Virus record (IMG/VR): IMGVR_UViG_2667528065_000010
Span: 1 to 7,146 of that record
Length of the DNA stretch: 7,146 nt
Direction: 5' to 3' (one strand)
Source: a virus
Lineage: Duplodnaviria; Heunggongvirae; Uroviricota; Caudoviricetes
The translations under genes were made by a program, and so were the position numbers. The notes under the pieces are model-generated. The model ran no database searches. It was not told where the DNA came from and worked only from the letters and a program-made list of their open reading frames with translations. Shown here one piece after another: positions 217 through 7,146 of the stretch (position 1 is the stretch's first letter; every line of letters begins with the position of its first letter).

Positions 217-340
217 TTACTCCCTGACAGGGTTCGTAGGCCACTCAATATCAGGTGCAGTTGATGTATCAACACGGTTCAGCAGCATCCGATACTTTTT
301 CCAGGCTTCCAGCAACGGGGTTTCTTCCTCCGTTGCATAT
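217..340 (-). pseudogene. tfa: 3' remnant of a tail fibre assembly gene (Tfa family C-terminus), lacking start and N-terminal domain
   Basis: Minus-strand translation of 340..220 is [39 protein letters not shown], then TAA at 219-217. This matches the C-terminal motif of E. coli prophage Tfa proteins as I recall it (…[26 protein letters not shown]…). An in-frame TGA lies at 343-341, there is no ATG upstream of the motif, and the preceding sequence is an unrelated membrane-protein ORF. Confidence 0.65.
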
Positions 341-355
341 ACAGCTCACCTTTTT

Positions 356-655
356 TCACCCACGATTAACCAACAGCCAGACCAGCAGACACGCCACCAC
401 CGGCACAGCAAAATCCATCAGGCTTGCCACATCCCATGCACGTGTATCAAAACCGCCCCACCACGGCATATTCATTCGCTTGCCATGCCCGAACATTTCG
501 ATCCAGCGATATTCTGCCTGGGTGTGTTCACGCGCAATGAAGAACGTACAACCGGCTATCGCCCCGTAAGCCCAGTTCCCGGTAAAAAGACCAATCAGTA
601 GCTGCGCAGCCACAGCACAAAGCGCATGAAGGAAAGGTGTTATATCCATTTTCAT
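356..655 (-). CDS. Hypothetical small membrane protein (~100 aa, 2-3 predicted TM segments)
   Basis: ORF 356..664 in the track begins at a TTG; the likely real start is ATG at 655 (MKMDITPF…) or 649. Hydrophobic stretches ITPFLHALCAVAAQLLIGLF and FAVPVVACLLVWLLV. Codon usage resembles the neighbouring genes. No family recognised. Confidence 0.5.
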   Translation of the reverse strand: MKMDITPFLHALCAVAAQLLIGLFTGNWAYGAIAGCTFFIAREHTQAEYRWIEMFGHGKRMNMPWWGGFDTRAWDVASLMDFAVPVVACLLVWLLVNRG

Positions 656-662
656 CCTACCC

Positions 663-685
663 AATAAAACGGGGCGCTCGGCCCC
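663..685 (-). terminator. Candidate rho-independent terminator after the chaperone-domain fibre gene
   Basis: Minus-strand ggggc-cgagc-gcccc (5-bp GC stem) followed by gttttatt, directly after the TAA at 692-694. The stem is short, so confidence is modest. Confidence 0.4.
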
Positions 686-691
686 TTAATA

Positions 692-1736
692 TTATTTAGA
701 CGCAAGCGCCGCCTCAATTGCAGATAATCTTTGTCTTAATTCTGCGTTTTCTTCTTCCAGTGCTGTTATTCTGTCGTCTGACTCTCTGGCTACCTGAACA
801 AGCAAGCCAGTAACACCAGAATAATCTACTGTGTAATAACGTTCACCTTCTTCACCTTCCGATCCGCTCGCACCGTCCTGATATTTCATTGCGGAACCTA
901 CAACTTCTGGGATTGCTTCCAGAGCTTCCTGTGCAATGACACCAGCATAGGGCATACCGTTTTCTTTAAGCGTGTATGTATAGCCGTTCATTTTACGGAT
1001 GCGGTCGGTTGCATTATCGATCACCTGAATGTTGTCTTTCAGATCCCGGTCGGAATGCTGGTTAAATGCGGTGGCATGACATGCACCATTAACGCTTAAC
1101 ATATAGGTGTTATCGGTATTTTTCTGCGCATAGAACATATAAGCGCCACAAGTCACGACACCGACTTCATAAACAACAGGACGGCTGGAGTTGCCCCACA
1201 ATTGAGCGAGTAACACCAGCATAAGCGGTTCCCTGTGTGTTTAATGTCATGGTTGACCCATGATTGGCATATTTGATCTGTAATGTGTCGGTGTAATCAA
1301 ATTTAATAAGCGCGTTACTTCCACGCTTGCTGTATGACATAAGGCAGTTACCCATTTTGAGGTATCCGCTGTCACCGGGAAAAATCATCGTACCGCCATA
1401 AAGGTTGGTAAAGTCCCAGCAAATGTTTGTCCCGTTATCGTTCAGGTTAAGGCGCGCCATTGCGTTACCTGGACTGTCTATCCATTTTTTGAGGTATAGT
1501 TCGCAATACGCATCCTCAACACCTGCCGTCCTGTGAGTTGAGCGGAGTTTTCTCCCAAATATAGCTCCGCTAGTTGGCAATACCTGCTGATACCATGAAG
1601 CAGACCAGTCACCAACGATTTCATCTTTGCTGTCTACATATAATTTTGTTGCGTAGCTTCCTTGATCGTTTTTTAATTTGCTAACGTCGGATTTTAGCGT
1701 TTTGATGTCATCAGGAATTACTGTCGATGTAGCCAT
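692..1736 (-). pseudogene. Short tail-fibre/tip protein with C-terminal intramolecular-chaperone (peptidase S74-like) domain, interrupted by a frameshift
   Basis: Two overlapping minus ORFs in different frames (1167..1736 and 692..1222). The upstream part begins at ATG 1736 with AGGAAG as RBS. The downstream part carries HSDRDLKDNIQVI…GYTYTLKENG…GVIAQEALEAIPEVV…ALEEENAELRQRLSAIEAALASK. The SDxxxKxNI motif followed by a C-terminal coiled coil is, as I recall it, the signature of the self-cleaving chaperone domain of phage tail fibres and endosialidases. Removing one G from the minus-strand G4 run (plus C4 at 1194-1197) gives a continuous ~347-aa protein (…GVTRSIVG-NSSRPVVYEV…). Confidence 0.6.
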
Positions 1737-1745
1737 TTTTCTTCC

Positions 1746-2027
1746 TCACATCCAGCCACGAAGTTGATGCTCAACAGCAACCACGTATTCATCGAATAAT
1801 GACGATATTTGCGAATCATTAATGATGCGCACGTTTACAAAATATCCGTCTTCCTTAACACATACCGGTTCGCCATCTTCAGTCAGTTCTCCGGTTTCTT
1901 TGTACACGTTACCTATCACGTCGATAAGAATATCATCCTGCATCGACTCGTCATCATAATAGCCAATACTCTCCATAAAGGCCGAAAAGTCGGCCCTGTC
2001 TTCAAATTTGAGTGTTAAATCTTTCAT
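1746..2027 (-). CDS. Hypothetical acidic 93-aa protein of unknown function
   Basis: ATG at 2027 with a strong SD (GGGGGAG, plus 2036-2042) 8 nt upstream. It starts 23 nt after the stf stop, and its TGA sits 9 nt before the next gene's ATG, so it is translationally coupled on both sides. Rich in Asp/Glu. I recognise no family. Confidence 0.65.
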   Translation of the reverse strand: MKDLTLKFEDRADFSAFMESIGYYDDESMQDDILIDVIGNVYKETGELTEDGEPVCVKEDGYFVNVRIINDSQISSLFDEYVVAVEHQLRGWM

Positions 2028-2050
2028 TAGATTGACTCCCCCATTTGTGC

Positions 2051-4456
2051 CTAAGTTAATTCTTTATGCCAAATGCGTAAATTTTTCACATGACCGAACA
2101 GGTGTCTGTTGCCACTGGATGATTGTCCACCGATATTAATATTACCGGCAGTATAACGTTGCAATGTATGCAGAGACGGGGAGCTGCCACCTAAAATTCC
2201 ATCAACAACAACCTGCAACTGTTTATCTTCTGTAAACTTAAAGCCAGTAACAAATTTCCTTTTCTCTCTATTCCCATATGCTTTATATTCTGTTTTTGTT
2301 CCTTTGCCATTGGTGATAATTAGCCTTTTACCACGAGTGGTAAAACCAAAATACATATAACTTTCATCAGAAACTTCAGTCGTCGCCCCTGTAATTGAGA
2401 TATTAAGCAAACGCGCAGAGCCTTCTAAATTAGGCATTTCAGAATCCCAATTAACATTAACTTCCATGAGAACACTAACTGGTGGAGTTGCCCAATTGAA
2501 AGGTATAGGTATGATTACCTGGTCACTTGCTCTCGTGGCACCGACCTCTGTTGTGATGATAAAAGATGACGCGTTTAGTCCCTTTTCGAATTGAGGGGTT
2601 GTTAACATTAATTTATCGCCAGACTTGATTGATCGTTGATGTGCTCCAAACTCAAAACGCCCATACATATTTTTTGCTTCTGGTGATTTGTAGGTAAACT
2701 CAACACGAATCCATCCATTAGACTCTCTGAATATGTTATAAGTTGCCGCCTCACCTCCAGAATAACTCAACATATCGCCAGTCTCGCAATCAATATATGC
2801 GCCAGCGGTCAGTGTGTTACTTGAGCCATCGTCGTTAACATATGATATTCTTGGACGCAACGTGATAATACCATCCCCACTTACTTTTTTAACTCTGCAG
2901 GATAAAGTAACTGATTCATTTGCCGAAACTGAAATAACCCTGGTATATCCAGTAGAAATTAATGTCGCCCTTTCAGTTGTGGATGTTTCTTTAACGCCAA
3001 ACAAACCATAACTGAAACCATACTCATCAACTCCCGTGGTAATAGTTAAGTTAGCAGTGTCATAGTTCCACGATACTGGTGTATTCGTATAAGAAAAAGT
3101 ATTCGTTCTCTGACCTTCAATGAGCAGACCATCTTTTTCAAAACGTGGTTCATTTATCGCTGATTCAGCAAAACACCCAGACTTATCTATATACGTTGCA
3201 GTTGACGCCCTGGTAAATGAAACAACCTTTTCAGACGGCAATGCAATAACATCGTCACCAACTGTGATGCTCTTATATCCAGGAGCAAACCCGGTAATCA
3301 TATCCAGTGAATCGTTAAACGGTATCCACACCTCAGGTAACGGCTGTAAGACATATTTATACGGCTCCGCAGCCTGGCTGGCGTACTCTCTGGCTGCATC
3401 TTCGCTTGCTTTAGCTGCCGTCTGGCTTGCTGCCGATGCTTTCGCTGAGTTCGCAGCCGCTGTTTCGCTCGCCTTTGCGTTGGTTTCACTGGTTTTTGCT
3501 GCTTTTTGAGCGGTTAGCTGATGCAGTGGCAGAAGCAGCCGCCGCACTTGCAGAACCAGCTGCAGCACTCTCGCTTTCGGCTGCTGCAGCCTGACTACTT
3601 TTCGCCGCAGTTTCGCTGGCTTTGGCATTCGTTTCGCTGGTCTTCGCTGCTGTCTGGCTGGACTTTGCGTTAGTTTCACTCGTCTTCGCAGCTTTCTGGC
3701 TGTTAGCCGCAGCAGTTGCTGATCCGGCTGCTGAAGTCGCAGAACCGGCCGCCGCACTCTCGCTTTCAGCTGCTGCATCCTGACTGCTTTTCGCCGCAGT
3801 TTCACTGGCTTTCGCATTCGTTTCGCTGGTTTTCGCTGCCGTCTGGCTGGACTTCGCGTTGGTTTCGCTCGTCTTTGCGGCTGTCTCACTGTTTTTCGCG
3901 TTGGTTTCTGATTTTTTGGCTGCAGTCGCGGGGAGGGGGCCGATGCAGTCTGTGAGGCCGCTGCCGCCTGTGCGCTGTTAGCTGCGTTCGTTTCTGAGGT
4001 TTTCGCCGCGTTCTTCGATGATGCCGCTGCTGTTTCGGATTTCTTTGCCGCCGCTGCGCTCTGAGAGGCGGCTTCAGCGTTGCGTGCCGCTTCTTCCACC
4101 ATTTCCTCAAAACGACGCAATGCCTCCGGCATGACATCATCTTCCGTCATGGCACCGAGAAAATCATTCAGCGTCCCCGGCTTAGAATCTTCATACACGG
4201 TGATGGTCCCGGCATGTGAAGGCGGAAAACCTTCAACCAGCAGGATAACGCTGTACTGGCCATACTCAACATCCATGCTGTAACGCCCGGCTTCATCCGG
4301 ATCTTCAGAGGCCACCGTGTTCACCAGATTTTCAGAGGCCACCGTGTTCACCAGTACCGTGGTGCTGTTACGCTTTGCCTTCAGTTGAATAGTGCAGTTC
4401 TGTATTGGTTTTCCCGCACCATCTTTCAGCACACCTGAGATTTTTACTGCTGCCAT
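2051..4456 (-). CDS. stf: Side tail fibre protein: lambda Stf-like N-terminus, Ala/Ser/Thr-rich repeat shaft, non-lambda C-terminal domain (possibly lectin/LamG-like)
   Basis: Likely start is ATG at 4456-4454 (MAAVKISGVLKDG…), with GGAG 5 nt upstream; the ORF-track start at 4462 is a GTG two codons further up. The N-terminal ~170 aa closely match my recollection of lambda Stf (MAVKISGVLKDG…NCTIQLKA…EAGRYSMDVEYGQYSVIL…FPPSHAGTITVYEDS…). The middle has AAKTSETNAKA-type repeats. The C-terminal ~480 aa are beta-rich and end …RHLFGHVKNLRIWHKELT. The ORF is continuous, but about 140 internal codons are in an alternative frame (see findings). Confidence 0.82.
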   Translation of the reverse strand: MAAVKISGVLKDGAGKPIQNCTIQLKAKRNSTTVLVNTVASENLVNTVASEDPDEAGRYSMDVEYGQYSVILLVEGFPPSHAGTITVYEDSKPGTLNDFLGAMTEDDVMPEALRRFEEMVEEAARNAEAASQSAAAAKKSETAAASSKNAAKTSETNAANSAQAAAASQTASAPSPRLQPKNQKPTRKTVRQPQRRAKPTRSPARRQRKPAKRMRKPVKLRRKAVRMQQLKARVRRPVLRLQQPDQQLLRLTARKLRRRVKLTQSPARQQRRPAKRMPKPAKLRRKVVRLQQPKARVLQLVLQVRRLLLPLHQLTAQKAAKTSETNAKASETAAANSAKASAASQTAAKASEDAAREYASQAAEPYKYVLQPLPEVWIPFNDSLDMITGFAPGYKSITVGDDVIALPSEKVVSFTRASTATYIDKSGCFAESAINEPRFEKDGLLIEGQRTNTFSYTNTPVSWNYDTANLTITTGVDEYGFSYGLFGVKETSTTERATLISTGYTRVISVSANESVTLSCRVKKVSGDGIITLRPRISYVNDDGSSNTLTAGAYIDCETGDMLSYSGGEAATYNIFRESNGWIRVEFTYKSPEAKNMYGRFEFGAHQRSIKSGDKLMLTTPQFEKGLNASSFIITTEVGATRASDQVIIPIPFNWATPPVSVLMEVNVNWDSEMPNLEGSARLLNISITGATTEVSDESYMYFGFTTRGKRLIITNGKGTKTEYKAYGNREKRKFVTGFKFTEDKQLQVVVDGILGGSSPSLHTLQRYTAGNINIGGQSSSGNRHLFGHVKNLRIWHKELT
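3474..3930 (-). repeat. 189-bp-period tandem repeats (about 2.4 copies, ~90% identical) encoding the Ala/Ser/Thr-rich fibre shaft
   Basis: Plus-strand landmarks recur at a 189-nt offset: gcagaacc at 3550 and 3739; gttagc at 3513 and 3702. One sub-segment shows a 190-nt offset (tttgcgtt at 3474 and 3664), which reveals a 1-nt indel between copies. Confidence 0.85.
4301..4354 (-). repeat. 27-bp tandem duplication (26/27 identical) inside the stf N-terminal domain, in frame
   Basis: 4301-4327 versus 4328-4354 differ at one base. It encodes LVNTVASEN-LVNTVASED, whereas lambda Stf as I recall it has a single VNTVGSE at this point. Confidence 0.85.
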
Positions 4457-4466
4457 ATCCACTCCA

Positions 4467-4494
4467 CAAAAAAGCCCGCCTGAACCGGCGGGCT
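4467..4494 (-). terminator. Rho-independent terminator downstream of lom
   Basis: Minus-strand agcccgcc-ggttca-ggcgggct (8-bp GC-rich stem; plus 4473-4494) followed by tttttt (plus A-run 4467-4472). It sits just upstream of the stf RBS (GGAG) and start codon. Confidence 0.65.
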
Positions 4495-5211: not shown

Positions 5212-7146
5212 TCAGCTGATACTGATGCCTGCAGTGGCTTTCTTCATCACAACAACCAGCAAATCGCTGATACTTGCTGTGGGATACCAACCATTTACCC
5301 ACCATGCTGATACAGAAAACTCCAGTGTCATTACACCACTGCCTGCAGGCATATCAATAACACCCGTGTAAATCAGAGTATTATCCAGAGCCGTTCGGTT
5401 ATAAATTTCAGCCCCGTTTTTCTTCACTATCAGGCGGCATGACGAATAAGTATCGCTATTCTCCCGCTCATGTCTGGCACCGCAGAAAGCCACCGCTGGA
5501 ATAACAATTTGCCGGTCAAACGACTGATCGTCATAAACCCTGACGGTAATAGTCCCTGATGGCCACCGCTCCGGTGCACGGGAGTCCCGGGGGAAAGCTT
5601 TGCCCACTGTTTTAACGAGATCGCCTTCAATCTGGTTCGCGGACAGTTTTCCCAGAACCCGACAGTTCTCGTTAATCGTGACATTATTGAGCGTCCCGGA
5701 GTTCGCATTCACGTTACCGCTGATATCGGCATTTTTCGCCGTCAGCCGCCCGTCCGGTGTCAGGGAAAATACCGGAGGATTGCCGCCACTGGTAATGGTG
5801 GGAGCCGTCAGATACTTCAGGAACACTTCGTTCATGAATATCTGGTTGCCCTGCGCCACAAACATCGGCGTTTCATTCCCGTTTGCCGGGTCAATAAACG
5901 CGATACGGTTAGCGGCAACCAGGAACTGGCTCAGTTTGCCTTCCTCCGTATCCTCCATACTAAGGCCAAGCCCCGCGACATAATGCCTGCCGTCTTCGGT
6001 CTGCTCAATTTTGACGCCCCACATGGCATTCCATTTATCGTTGGCGTCCTTCCACTCTTTCGAAAACTCCTCCAGTTTGCTGGCGTTATCCTCCTCCAGT
6101 TTGCTGGCGTTATCCTCCGTCAGCTCGACTTTTTCCAGCAGCTCCTTGCCGAGATGGGATTCGGTTATCTGGCCTTTGAAAAAATCCAGGTAACCTTCCG
6201 CATCATCGCTCGGCTGACCAACAGCCTCCACGAATGCCGATTTGCCAACGGTGTTCACACTGCGGATATAAAAGTAATAATCATGGCCCGGTTTGATATT
6301 GATACTGGCAGCTATCCAGTACAGCGCCGTACCAAGATAGCGGGCTGTGGTCTCAACCTGCCTGATATCGGTAATCCGCTTTTCCGAGAACCAGAACTCA
6401 AACTGTACCGTCGGATCATAAACCGCAAGATGCGGCGTGGCAGTTATCTGAAAATAGCCCGGCGTCAGCTCAATCCGCGACGGCGCTGCCGGTGCGGCAA
6501 TCCGGAACGATACCGATGCCGGATCGCCCTGCTGTCCCCACGCATTTACCGCCCGGACCGTCAGCGTGTAACGCCCCAGCGCCAGTTGCCTGAAGCGGTA
6601 TGTGGTTTCCGTCGTCCTGGCCGTGCTGACCAGCCGCTCACTGCCGTCATCCGCTGCCACGGTCAGGCGAAGCATAAAGCTCACCCCCTTCACCACCTTC
6701 GGCGTATCCCAGCGCGCCAGCACCTGATACTCCCCGCTGTCTGAGGTGACTTCGGCAGTCAGGTGCTGCACCGCAGGCGGCGTGACACCATTCACCGTGC
6801 CGCTCTGGTCGCCGTCAAAGTGCGCCCCGTTATCCACGATGGCCTCTTTTTCCGGCACATGCTGCACGGCGGTGATGGCATACGTGCCGTCGTCGTTCTC
6901 ACGGATACTCACGCAGCGGAACAGGCGCTGGCGCAGCGTCGGCAGCTTCAGCCCCCATACGCTGTATTCAGCAACACCGTCAGGAACACGGCTCACTTTT
7001 ACCTTCACGCCGTCGGTGACGGACTGAACCTCCACGCTGACCGGATTGCCACTTCCGTCAACCAGACTTATCAGCGTGGTACCGGAGGATGGCAGCGTGA
7101 TTTCACGGTCGAGCGTCAGCGTCCGGGTCTGGCTGTTCACCGCCAG
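5212..7146 (-). CDS. J: Host specificity / tail tip fibre protein J, C-terminal ~644 codons; 5' end lies beyond the right window edge
   Basis: Minus-strand frame is open from the window edge to the TGA at 5212-5214. The ORF-track start at 7140 is only an internal GTG. Translation contains fibronectin-III-like segments ([27 protein letters not shown]) and ends ...[32 protein letters not shown], matching my recollection of the lambda J C-terminus (receptor-binding region). Gene order J-lom-stf agrees with lambda. Confidence 0.93.
6067..6114 (-). repeat. Perfect 24-bp tandem duplication (2 x ctcctccagtttgctggcgttatc) inside J, in frame
   Basis: Read directly: 6067-6090 is identical to 6091-6114. 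In the J frame it duplicates eight residues (…[24 protein letters not shown]…). Confidence 0.9.

Follow-up and report, generated by a model that had tools for sequence, protein, structure and literature searches.

What does a small, strongly acidic protein do when it is encoded between two phage tail fibre genes, and to which of them does it belong? The question is raised by a 7,146-nucleotide stretch of viral DNA, here called the window, that represents the J-lom-stf end of a lambdoid Escherichia coli prophage beside sitABCD and is read on the minus strand. Approximately 49 complete E. coli genomes match the window over its full length, the best with 99.0% identity. The features on which the argument turns are the following.

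4473-4494, minus strand: terminator-like hairpin between lom and stf (consensus scan only; counts not above those in shuffles).
2051-4462, minus strand: stf, with a lambda-like N-terminal domain (PF08400; ORF and Pfam), damaged in the window.
2054-3355, minus strand: C-terminal module of Stf, about 434 aa (Pfam, NCBIfam, cross-family alignment and monomer model).
2028-2050, minus strand: coupling region holding the Shine-Dalgarno sequence GGGGGAG (comparison with relatives).
1746-2027, minus strand: 93-aa acidic protein of the PHROG 1361 family (ORF call and composition).
692-1736, minus strand: distal (second) fibre gene with a C-terminal Peptidase_S74 intramolecular chaperone (ORF, Pfam, PHROG and relatives).
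356-664, minus strand: small membrane protein of PHROG 1443, 97-102 aa with two predicted transmembrane segments (profile match).
About 219-347, minus strand: 3' remnant of a lambda-type tfa (RefSeq annotation of a matching genome, and translation).

The small ORF begins with ATG, runs for 93 codons and stops at TGA. Its product of 10.7 kDa starts MKDLTLKFEDRADF and ends HQLRGWM, and carries 22 Asp and Glu residues against 7 Lys and Arg (pI 4.05, GRAVY -0.29). A Shine-Dalgarno sequence, GGGGGAG at 2042-2036, lies 8 nt ahead of the ATG; the stf stop of the window (TAG, 2053-2051) is 23 nt upstream, and the distal fibre ATG (1736) follows 9 nt downstream, with GAGGAAG overlapping the TGA of the small ORF. 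In all of this, as in the acidity, the initial annotation was correct, leaving only the minus strand unnamed; it had also seen no transmembrane segment, and composition analysis indeed found no hydrophobic stretch. A full-length match to phrog_1361, homologues in about 180 phage records, an intact reading frame in 139 of the 140 loci examined and low pairwise dN/dS (0.20 among 38 alleles and 0.31 among 12, in the two main clades) establish a real gene, far beyond a chance ORF, and one that is under purifying selection. Terminator-like hairpins at 671-685, after the distal fibre, and at 4473-4494 bracket stf, the small gene and the distal fibre, and the consensus scan found no such site between the three, its counts not exceeding those in shuffles.

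A family for the protein, which had been judged beyond assignment from sequence alone, can be named, although it comes without a function. Residues 1-93 align with positions 1-92 of the 92 in the phrog_1361 profile at E 2.5e-46; PHROG 18574 is a weaker second match. Given that PHROG 1361 carries no annotated function, membership says nothing on mechanism. Searches elsewhere returned little: no Pfam family at E<=1, no NCBIfam match, and in the sequences of the PDB a best E of 0.04, to GAPDH, so that the protein lacks a relative whose structure has been solved. Among 1.84 billion cluster representatives only 51 relatives were found, nearly all of them stand-alone proteins of 85-125 aa. Weak matches of the beta-hairpin region to two large surface proteins (P0188 and P0195) were taken as spurious, both being Ig-like repeat proteins. 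The AlphaFold2 model, built from 40 sequences, has a pLDDT of 84.6 and predicts a beta-alpha-alpha-beta4-alpha domain with the last few residues disordered; comparison of this model with PDB folds gave no significant structural match, and a viral structure library gave only uncharacterised small phage proteins. The prediction is thus a soluble protein of alpha/beta fold whose C-terminal tail, ...L-R-x-W-x, is conserved and disordered. Family alignments display an N-terminal M-(K/R)-D-h-x-L-K-F, a strand G-(Y/W)-x-h-N-h-R and, at the extreme C-terminus, ...P-x-(R/Y)-x-W-(A/S/M), and acidity is kept in all members examined (pI 4.05-4.8). In itself, the small gene is an ordinary and very common member of an uncharacterised phage family.

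Its company is far more informative. By tblastn approximately 181 records of the phage collection encode a homologue. Among lambdoid phages that of 2G7b is 98% identical and that of phage 21, CPT_21_23, is 54% identical; the other carriers are Drexlerviridae, Dhillonvirus, Queuovirinae (Seuratvirus and Nonagvirus), the T5-like phages VSe12, IrisVonRoten and AKFV33, and a subset of the rV5-like myoviruses, rV5 itself not being among the matches. In all 147 loci fetched the small ORF lies directly behind a fibre gene bearing the same C-terminal module, the upstream gene being counted where its ORF exceeded 150 aa and ended in the ...RNxRIWHKxLTD... tail. The fibre stop abuts the small-ORF ATG or overlaps it by 1 or 4 nt (as TAATG or ATGA) in 146 of these loci, and in every family the Shine-Dalgarno sequence (GGGGAG, AAGGAG or similar) is encoded within the last codons of the fibre. 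Translational coupling to stf, as initially proposed, is therefore conserved across phage families and normally tighter than in the window, which is the single exception.

The exception has a simple origin. Base 2053 is changed from G to T, so that the GAG of the closest genomes reads TAG, a premature amber at 2053-2051 that sits eight codons short of the normal stf end (...HKELTEAQMGESI and stop in the relative L009). The sequence at 2028-2050, which separates the two genes here, still belongs to stf in all relatives, where it supplies the final 7 sense codons and the stop (AQMGESI and stop); the 23-nt gap is consequently peculiar to the window and owed to its own amber. Compared with the closest genome the window shows 21 small differences, none of which touches the small ORF, and named lesion sites are 17, 169, 1152, 1208, 2053, 3510, 3930, 4300, 4746 and 6067. 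Several are insertions of 1-3 nt. Those at 1208, 3510 and 3930 are of single or double bases; the ones at 3930 and 3510 put about 140 Stf residues out of frame, and an extra G near 1208 divides the distal fibre, approximately 346 aa in relatives, into ORFs at 1167-1736 and 692-1222. Tandem duplications of 24-27 nt occur once each in stf (27 nt), lom and J. The lesions stem either from errors in sequencing or assembly or from decay of the prophage.

The linkage holds equally when approached from the fibre. With the module alone as query and one genome per species (species representatives), 12 of 12 genuine module loci, in Escherichia, Silvania, Buttiauxella, Leclercia and Aeromonas, carry the small ORF abutting or overlapping the fibre stop; the homologues are of 93-104 aa, with small-protein HMM E-values from 5e-47 to 2e-10. 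The Aeromonas copies are related by profile comparison (E 3e-5) and have the common ending ...TPxxVWA, next to fibres that are 26-28% identical. In the phage collection tblastn finds 217 records for the module against approximately 181 for the small protein. Three further phages, drawn from the module match list and not specifically from the difference between these counts, all carry the small gene, and one of them, an Aeromonas phage, had gone uncounted in the small-protein tblastn. The LamG domain by itself was too insensitive a tblastn query for counting. Phage 4A7, an apparent exception, has an IS insertion within stf with the small gene still downstream, and EE09 lacks the module. More than 2,500 protein clusters match the module at E<=1e-10. 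The initial annotation had held that a failure of conservation in homologous fibre cassettes would count against it; as the gene is kept throughout them, that objection falls away. The small gene is strictly linked and coupled to the module in both directions, although tight linkage could in part reflect plain adjacency in a mobile cassette. What is new here is the finding of an obligate two-gene unit with one fibre-tip module that spans distant phages and is independent of a second fibre.

The module itself opens with a strongly conserved block starting PLP(D/E)VWIPFNDSLDMITGF; in the window the conserved blocks read PLPEVWIPFNDSLDMITGF..., ...ATRASD... and ...RHLFGHxxNxRIWHKELT. Its middle is a variable domain matching NCBIfam NF048003 GTA_spike_fiber ('GTA head spike fiber', E 1e-18), and its end is a LamG/concanavalin-like (galectin-like) domain, Pfam Laminin_G_3, closing with RHLFGHxRNxRIWHKxLTD. 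The homologous part of IrisVonRoten Gp22 is a galectin-like domain that protrudes from the proximal lateral fibre (Humolli 2025, PMC11990801). The AlphaFold2 monomer of the module (pLDDT 64) is confident in the variable middle domain but not in residues 1-85, 261-290 and 401-434, the conserved blocks; by blocks, conservation and pLDDT correlate with a Spearman rho of -0.73 on a shallow alignment of 27 rows. Conserved blocks that are poorly placed in the model fit the pattern expected if other chains complete them, although the rho of -0.73 could stem from contacts within the fibre trimer alone. Two side observations concern the module. In L022 and five similar loci (about 5840-6000) Stf has an internal deletion of approximately 80 residues in the LamG-like domain but keeps a related tail at its end, and the small ORF behind it is intact. 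In Escherichia marmotae (P0213 and P0235) the module is joined to N-termini of P2-type fibres (Pfam PF12571 and PF03406), which indicates that it has been shuffled between siphovirus and myovirus fibres.

Does the small protein follow the receptor-binding surface of the fibre it accompanies? In E. coli prophages it is 94-100% identical where the adjacent fibre modules are 36-100% identical, and a protein that stays constant while the receptor-binding part falls to 36% is, on these alignments, not the determinant of receptor specificity. Likewise, the idea that the small protein covaries with the LamG domain was rejected, as the window and 2G7b have very different LamG domains with a 98%-identical small protein; the two also differ strongly in the variable domain.

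Nor does the small protein depend on a second fibre. In the window the distal fibre begins with the motif MATSTVIPDDIKTLK (1692-1736, minus strand), which is common to distal fibres of several phage families; its counterparts are MVTKTVIPTDITKLK in T5-like phages and MATVTVIPSDITKLK in Drexlerviridae. The consensus M-x-T-x-T-V-I-P-x-D-I-x-x-L-K is shared by lambdoid, T5-like, Drexlerviridae and Seuratvirus distal fibres, the remainder of which differs, and the sharing implies that some conserved docking site exists; the motif itself is presumably the docking peptide of the branched fibre. Outside the window it begins at 5289 in L004, 5551 in L087, 5548 in L088 and 4279 in L003, and the VSe12 distal fibre is annotated from a start that leaves out the N-terminus bearing it. 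Many prophages (L035, L076, L065 and L072, about 6292-6996) and Drexlerviridae (L088, 5548-6243) have a 'second fibre' of only 227-234 aa, which consists of the docking motif plus a coiled coil and an S74-like chaperone domain and has hardly any receptor-binding portion; its BASEL annotation is 'putative lateral tail fiber chaperone'. In 50 phage-21-type loci with at least four fibre alleles, the small gene is followed by a membrane protein of 97 aa and no distal fibre. PhiR40_1 has the small gene without a distal fibre. In two Aeromonas prophages the small gene is followed by no fibre gene, in Buttiauxella by a non-fibre gene (possibly of the baseplate) and in rV5-like phages by an unrelated one; a P2-like Aeromonas phage has, after the fibre and small gene, one 85-aa ORF and then sheath and tube genes. 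The motifs of the small protein, including the C-terminal R-x-W, are kept without a distal fibre, save that the divergent rV5-like copies lack the R-x-W tail. The small protein thus depends neither on the distal fibre nor on the receptor-binding allele.

The membrane protein of PHROG 1443 merits a brief comment. It closes the cassette in lambdoid prophages, stands directly behind the small acidic gene in the phage-21-type loci and was found in none of the examined loci from virulent phages; a part in lysogenic conversion or exclusion is possible. The tfa remnant, lying between the cassette and sitD, marks an older stf-tfa end that has been replaced by the present cassette.

Given co-translation with one module, constancy amid a diverging receptor surface, selection regardless of a second fibre and a decayed tfa, the best explanation is that the small protein is a dedicated assembly or chaperone partner of the fibre-tip module, analogous to Tfa without being homologous to it; this reading may be given an even chance. 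The protein would be made in step with the fibre through translational coupling, would bind the invariant blocks of the module rather than the variable receptor-binding surface, and would help the fibre tip to fold, trimerise or remain competent for assembly. The job that Tfa does for lambda-type Stf would then be done by an unrelated small acidic alpha/beta protein that is neither a determinant of receptor specificity nor chiefly a connector for the second fibre. In the models, the disordered C-terminal tail and the unplaced conserved blocks fit surfaces that need a partner. Binding to the fibre and action in its assembly are inferred, and after assembly the protein may leave the finished fibre or stay on it. 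The initial proposal of a replacement for Tfa accordingly stands in part: the gene is linked to the fibre and coupled to it, and tfa persists only as a 3' remnant, which fits such a replacement. A wider version, somewhat short of probable, would have PHROG 1361 as an unrecognised class of fibre accessory which, together with the GTA-spike-like/LamG tip, makes up a mobile cassette of two genes, sufficient in itself, that siphoviruses and myoviruses of Enterobacterales and Aeromonas exchange; its R-x-W tail might insert into the conserved blocks, either driving Tfa-free assembly or capping (masking or organising) the three lectin-like heads until a host is met.

The strongest competitor, unlikely but with substance, is that the small protein is a permanent structural subunit, which clamps or caps the three C-terminal modules of the finished fibre; in variants of this idea it may serve as a platform for the distal fibre where one is encoded, or as a transient mask of the lectin-like domain. 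Jelly-roll lectin domains usually need no chaperone. Globular fibre domains in general may need none for folding, and since the middle domain of the module is modelled confidently on its own, a structural rather than a chaperone role is possible. Coupled expression would suit a stoichiometric component, the IrisVonRoten copy is annotated 'tail fiber protein', and its gene lies between the proximal fibre and the T-shaped distal fibre predicted to attach there (Humolli 2025, PMC11990801). The shared N-terminal motif of distal fibres, with the conserved docking site that it implies, points in the same direction, and chaperones that stay on as caps are known, as a paper citing Gonzalez-Serrano 2023 relates. 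However, the published models of the Gp22/Gp24 complex do not discuss the small protein, which with its motifs (the rV5-like tail excepted) is retained where a distal fibre is absent. No virion proteomics detects it either, but the studies are too shallow to be informative: 5-8 proteins per phage for swan01 and mar004NP2, and four analysed gel bands for AKFV33. As a separate observation on that phage (L162), its proximal fibre ORF137 ran at 95.8 kDa on the virion gel (PMC3326045) against a calculated 83.1 kDa, a difference close to the 10.1 kDa of the orf136 small protein; it may also be anomalous migration of an acidic protein.

A specific adaptor, joining the N-terminus of the downstream fibre to Stf, is what gene order first suggests and what the initial annotation had offered as one reading. 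Many lambdoid, T5-like, Drexlerviridae and Queuovirinae loci, like the window, do have the small gene between two fibre genes, and where a distal fibre follows closely its ATG is 2-12 nt away (85 nt in Ioannina). Yet more than 50 loci keep the small gene without a downstream fibre, and it is therefore not merely an adaptor for one. In the phage 21 clade at least 50 loci hold it intact and under selection (dN/dS 0.31) with no second fibre present, and to these are added PhiR40_1, the Aeromonas prophages, Buttiauxella, the P2-like Aeromonas phage and the rV5-like phages, with the motifs preserved in such loci apart from the rV5-like tail. Moreover, the small gene is tied to the upstream module, whereas the gene behind it varies: a 346-aa fibre, a 234-aa stub, T-shaped fibres of 557-586 aa, a membrane protein or a baseplate or sheath gene. 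As an account of the primary role the adaptor is consequently improbable, and as the sole role it is strongly disfavoured; the small protein could contribute to the docking site of the distal fibre, although not as its only purpose. Read-through of the TGA, which would fuse the small protein to the distal fibre (in frame in the window across the 9-nt gap), was rejected because the gap in L072 holds an in-frame TAA and VogelGryff has the fibre in another frame.

A passenger unrelated to the fibre, such as an acidic DNA-mimic anti-restriction protein or another moron, would account for a small and very acidic product, like Ocr- or ArdA-type mimics, with no assignable fold, but it is most improbable and the DNA-mimic idea was rejected on genomic context, given that the gene sits in late structural operons of temperate and virulent phages alike, always on the stop codon of the same module, has no promoter-like or terminator-like site of its own on the coding strand and is transferred with the module across siphoviruses and myoviruses of several bacterial genera.

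How, then, would a partner of the fibre tip compare with the accessory proteins already known? It resembles Tfa of lambda, U of Mu and G of P2 (Pfam PF02413) in being encoded immediately downstream of a fibre C-terminus and in travelling with the fibre tip in horizontal exchange, and co-inheritance of this kind was found throughout (147/147 forward, 12/12 and 3/3 in reverse). In P2, gene G lies directly behind gene H, and in the P2-like Aeromonas phage the small gene has the same position behind its own fibre gene. Unlike those proteins, however, it shows no sequence similarity to PF02413 (no Pfam family at E<=1), has 93 aa rather than approximately 175-195, is predicted to be a single alpha/beta domain and would serve a globular lectin-like module, not an intertwined beta-helical tip. 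T4 gp57A is similarly small, acidic, fibre-related and free of enzymatic motifs. That general chaperone of both long and short tail fibres consists wholly of helices, forms oligomers and has its gene apart from those of the fibres, whereas the small protein has a predicted beta-alpha-alpha-beta4-alpha fold and strictly adjoins one fibre type; no homology between the two was detected. The T-even gp38 adhesins and chaperones also come from a separate small gene right after the distal fibre gene, with a product at the fibre tip, but they are hypervariable and set host range. The small protein is conserved, has no detectable similarity to gp38 and lacks hypervariable segments that track the host (94-100% identity; dN/dS 0.2-0.3). 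Intramolecular chaperones of the Peptidase_S74 type differ again, as S74 here belongs to the downstream fibre (E 2.8e-14) and was found in neither the 93-aa protein nor Stf.

The setting of a proximal and then a distal fibre is that of the branched lateral fibres of T5-like phages, LtfA/LtfB of DT57C and Gp22/Gp24 of IrisVonRoten, in which the distal fibre is attached to the proximal one (PMC4728585, PMC10713586, PMC11990801). IrisVonRoten bas32_0023 is a member of the small-protein family; LtfA of DT57C differs in ending in a Peptidase_S74 intramolecular chaperone, and the DT57C papers mention no small gene in the ltf locus. In the BASEL papers the proximal and T-shaped fibres of IrisVonRoten are modelled without the small protein, and none of the papers found gives it a role; searches under FIG00639828, phrog_1361 and VOG7707 found no literature, and the Eligo papers on Stf chimeras mention no accessory proteins for this fibre type. 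IrisVonRoten and other phages with related modules are able to infect E. coli K-12 in which the O16 O-antigen has been restored (BASEL papers).

Fibres with this module are common, being present in many E. coli prophages and in T5-like, T1-like, Dhillonvirus, Queuovirinae and rV5-like phages, and the uncharacterised 10-kDa protein that accompanies them is ignored in the structural and host-range studies found. If needed for assembly, the protein is a part that models of these fibres lack, and it solves in a second, non-homologous way the problem handled by Tfa; transfer of such tips into chimeric Stf for engineered particles would, if this is true, require the small gene as well. If it is dispensable, its conservation would be odd. 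Finally, some records labelled as Campylobacter or Listeria phages (e.g., MG065652-MG065692 and OR847733) carry an E. coli-type cassette of high identity to rV5-like, T5-like or lambdoid coliphages, which suggests that these entries are mislabelled or contaminated.
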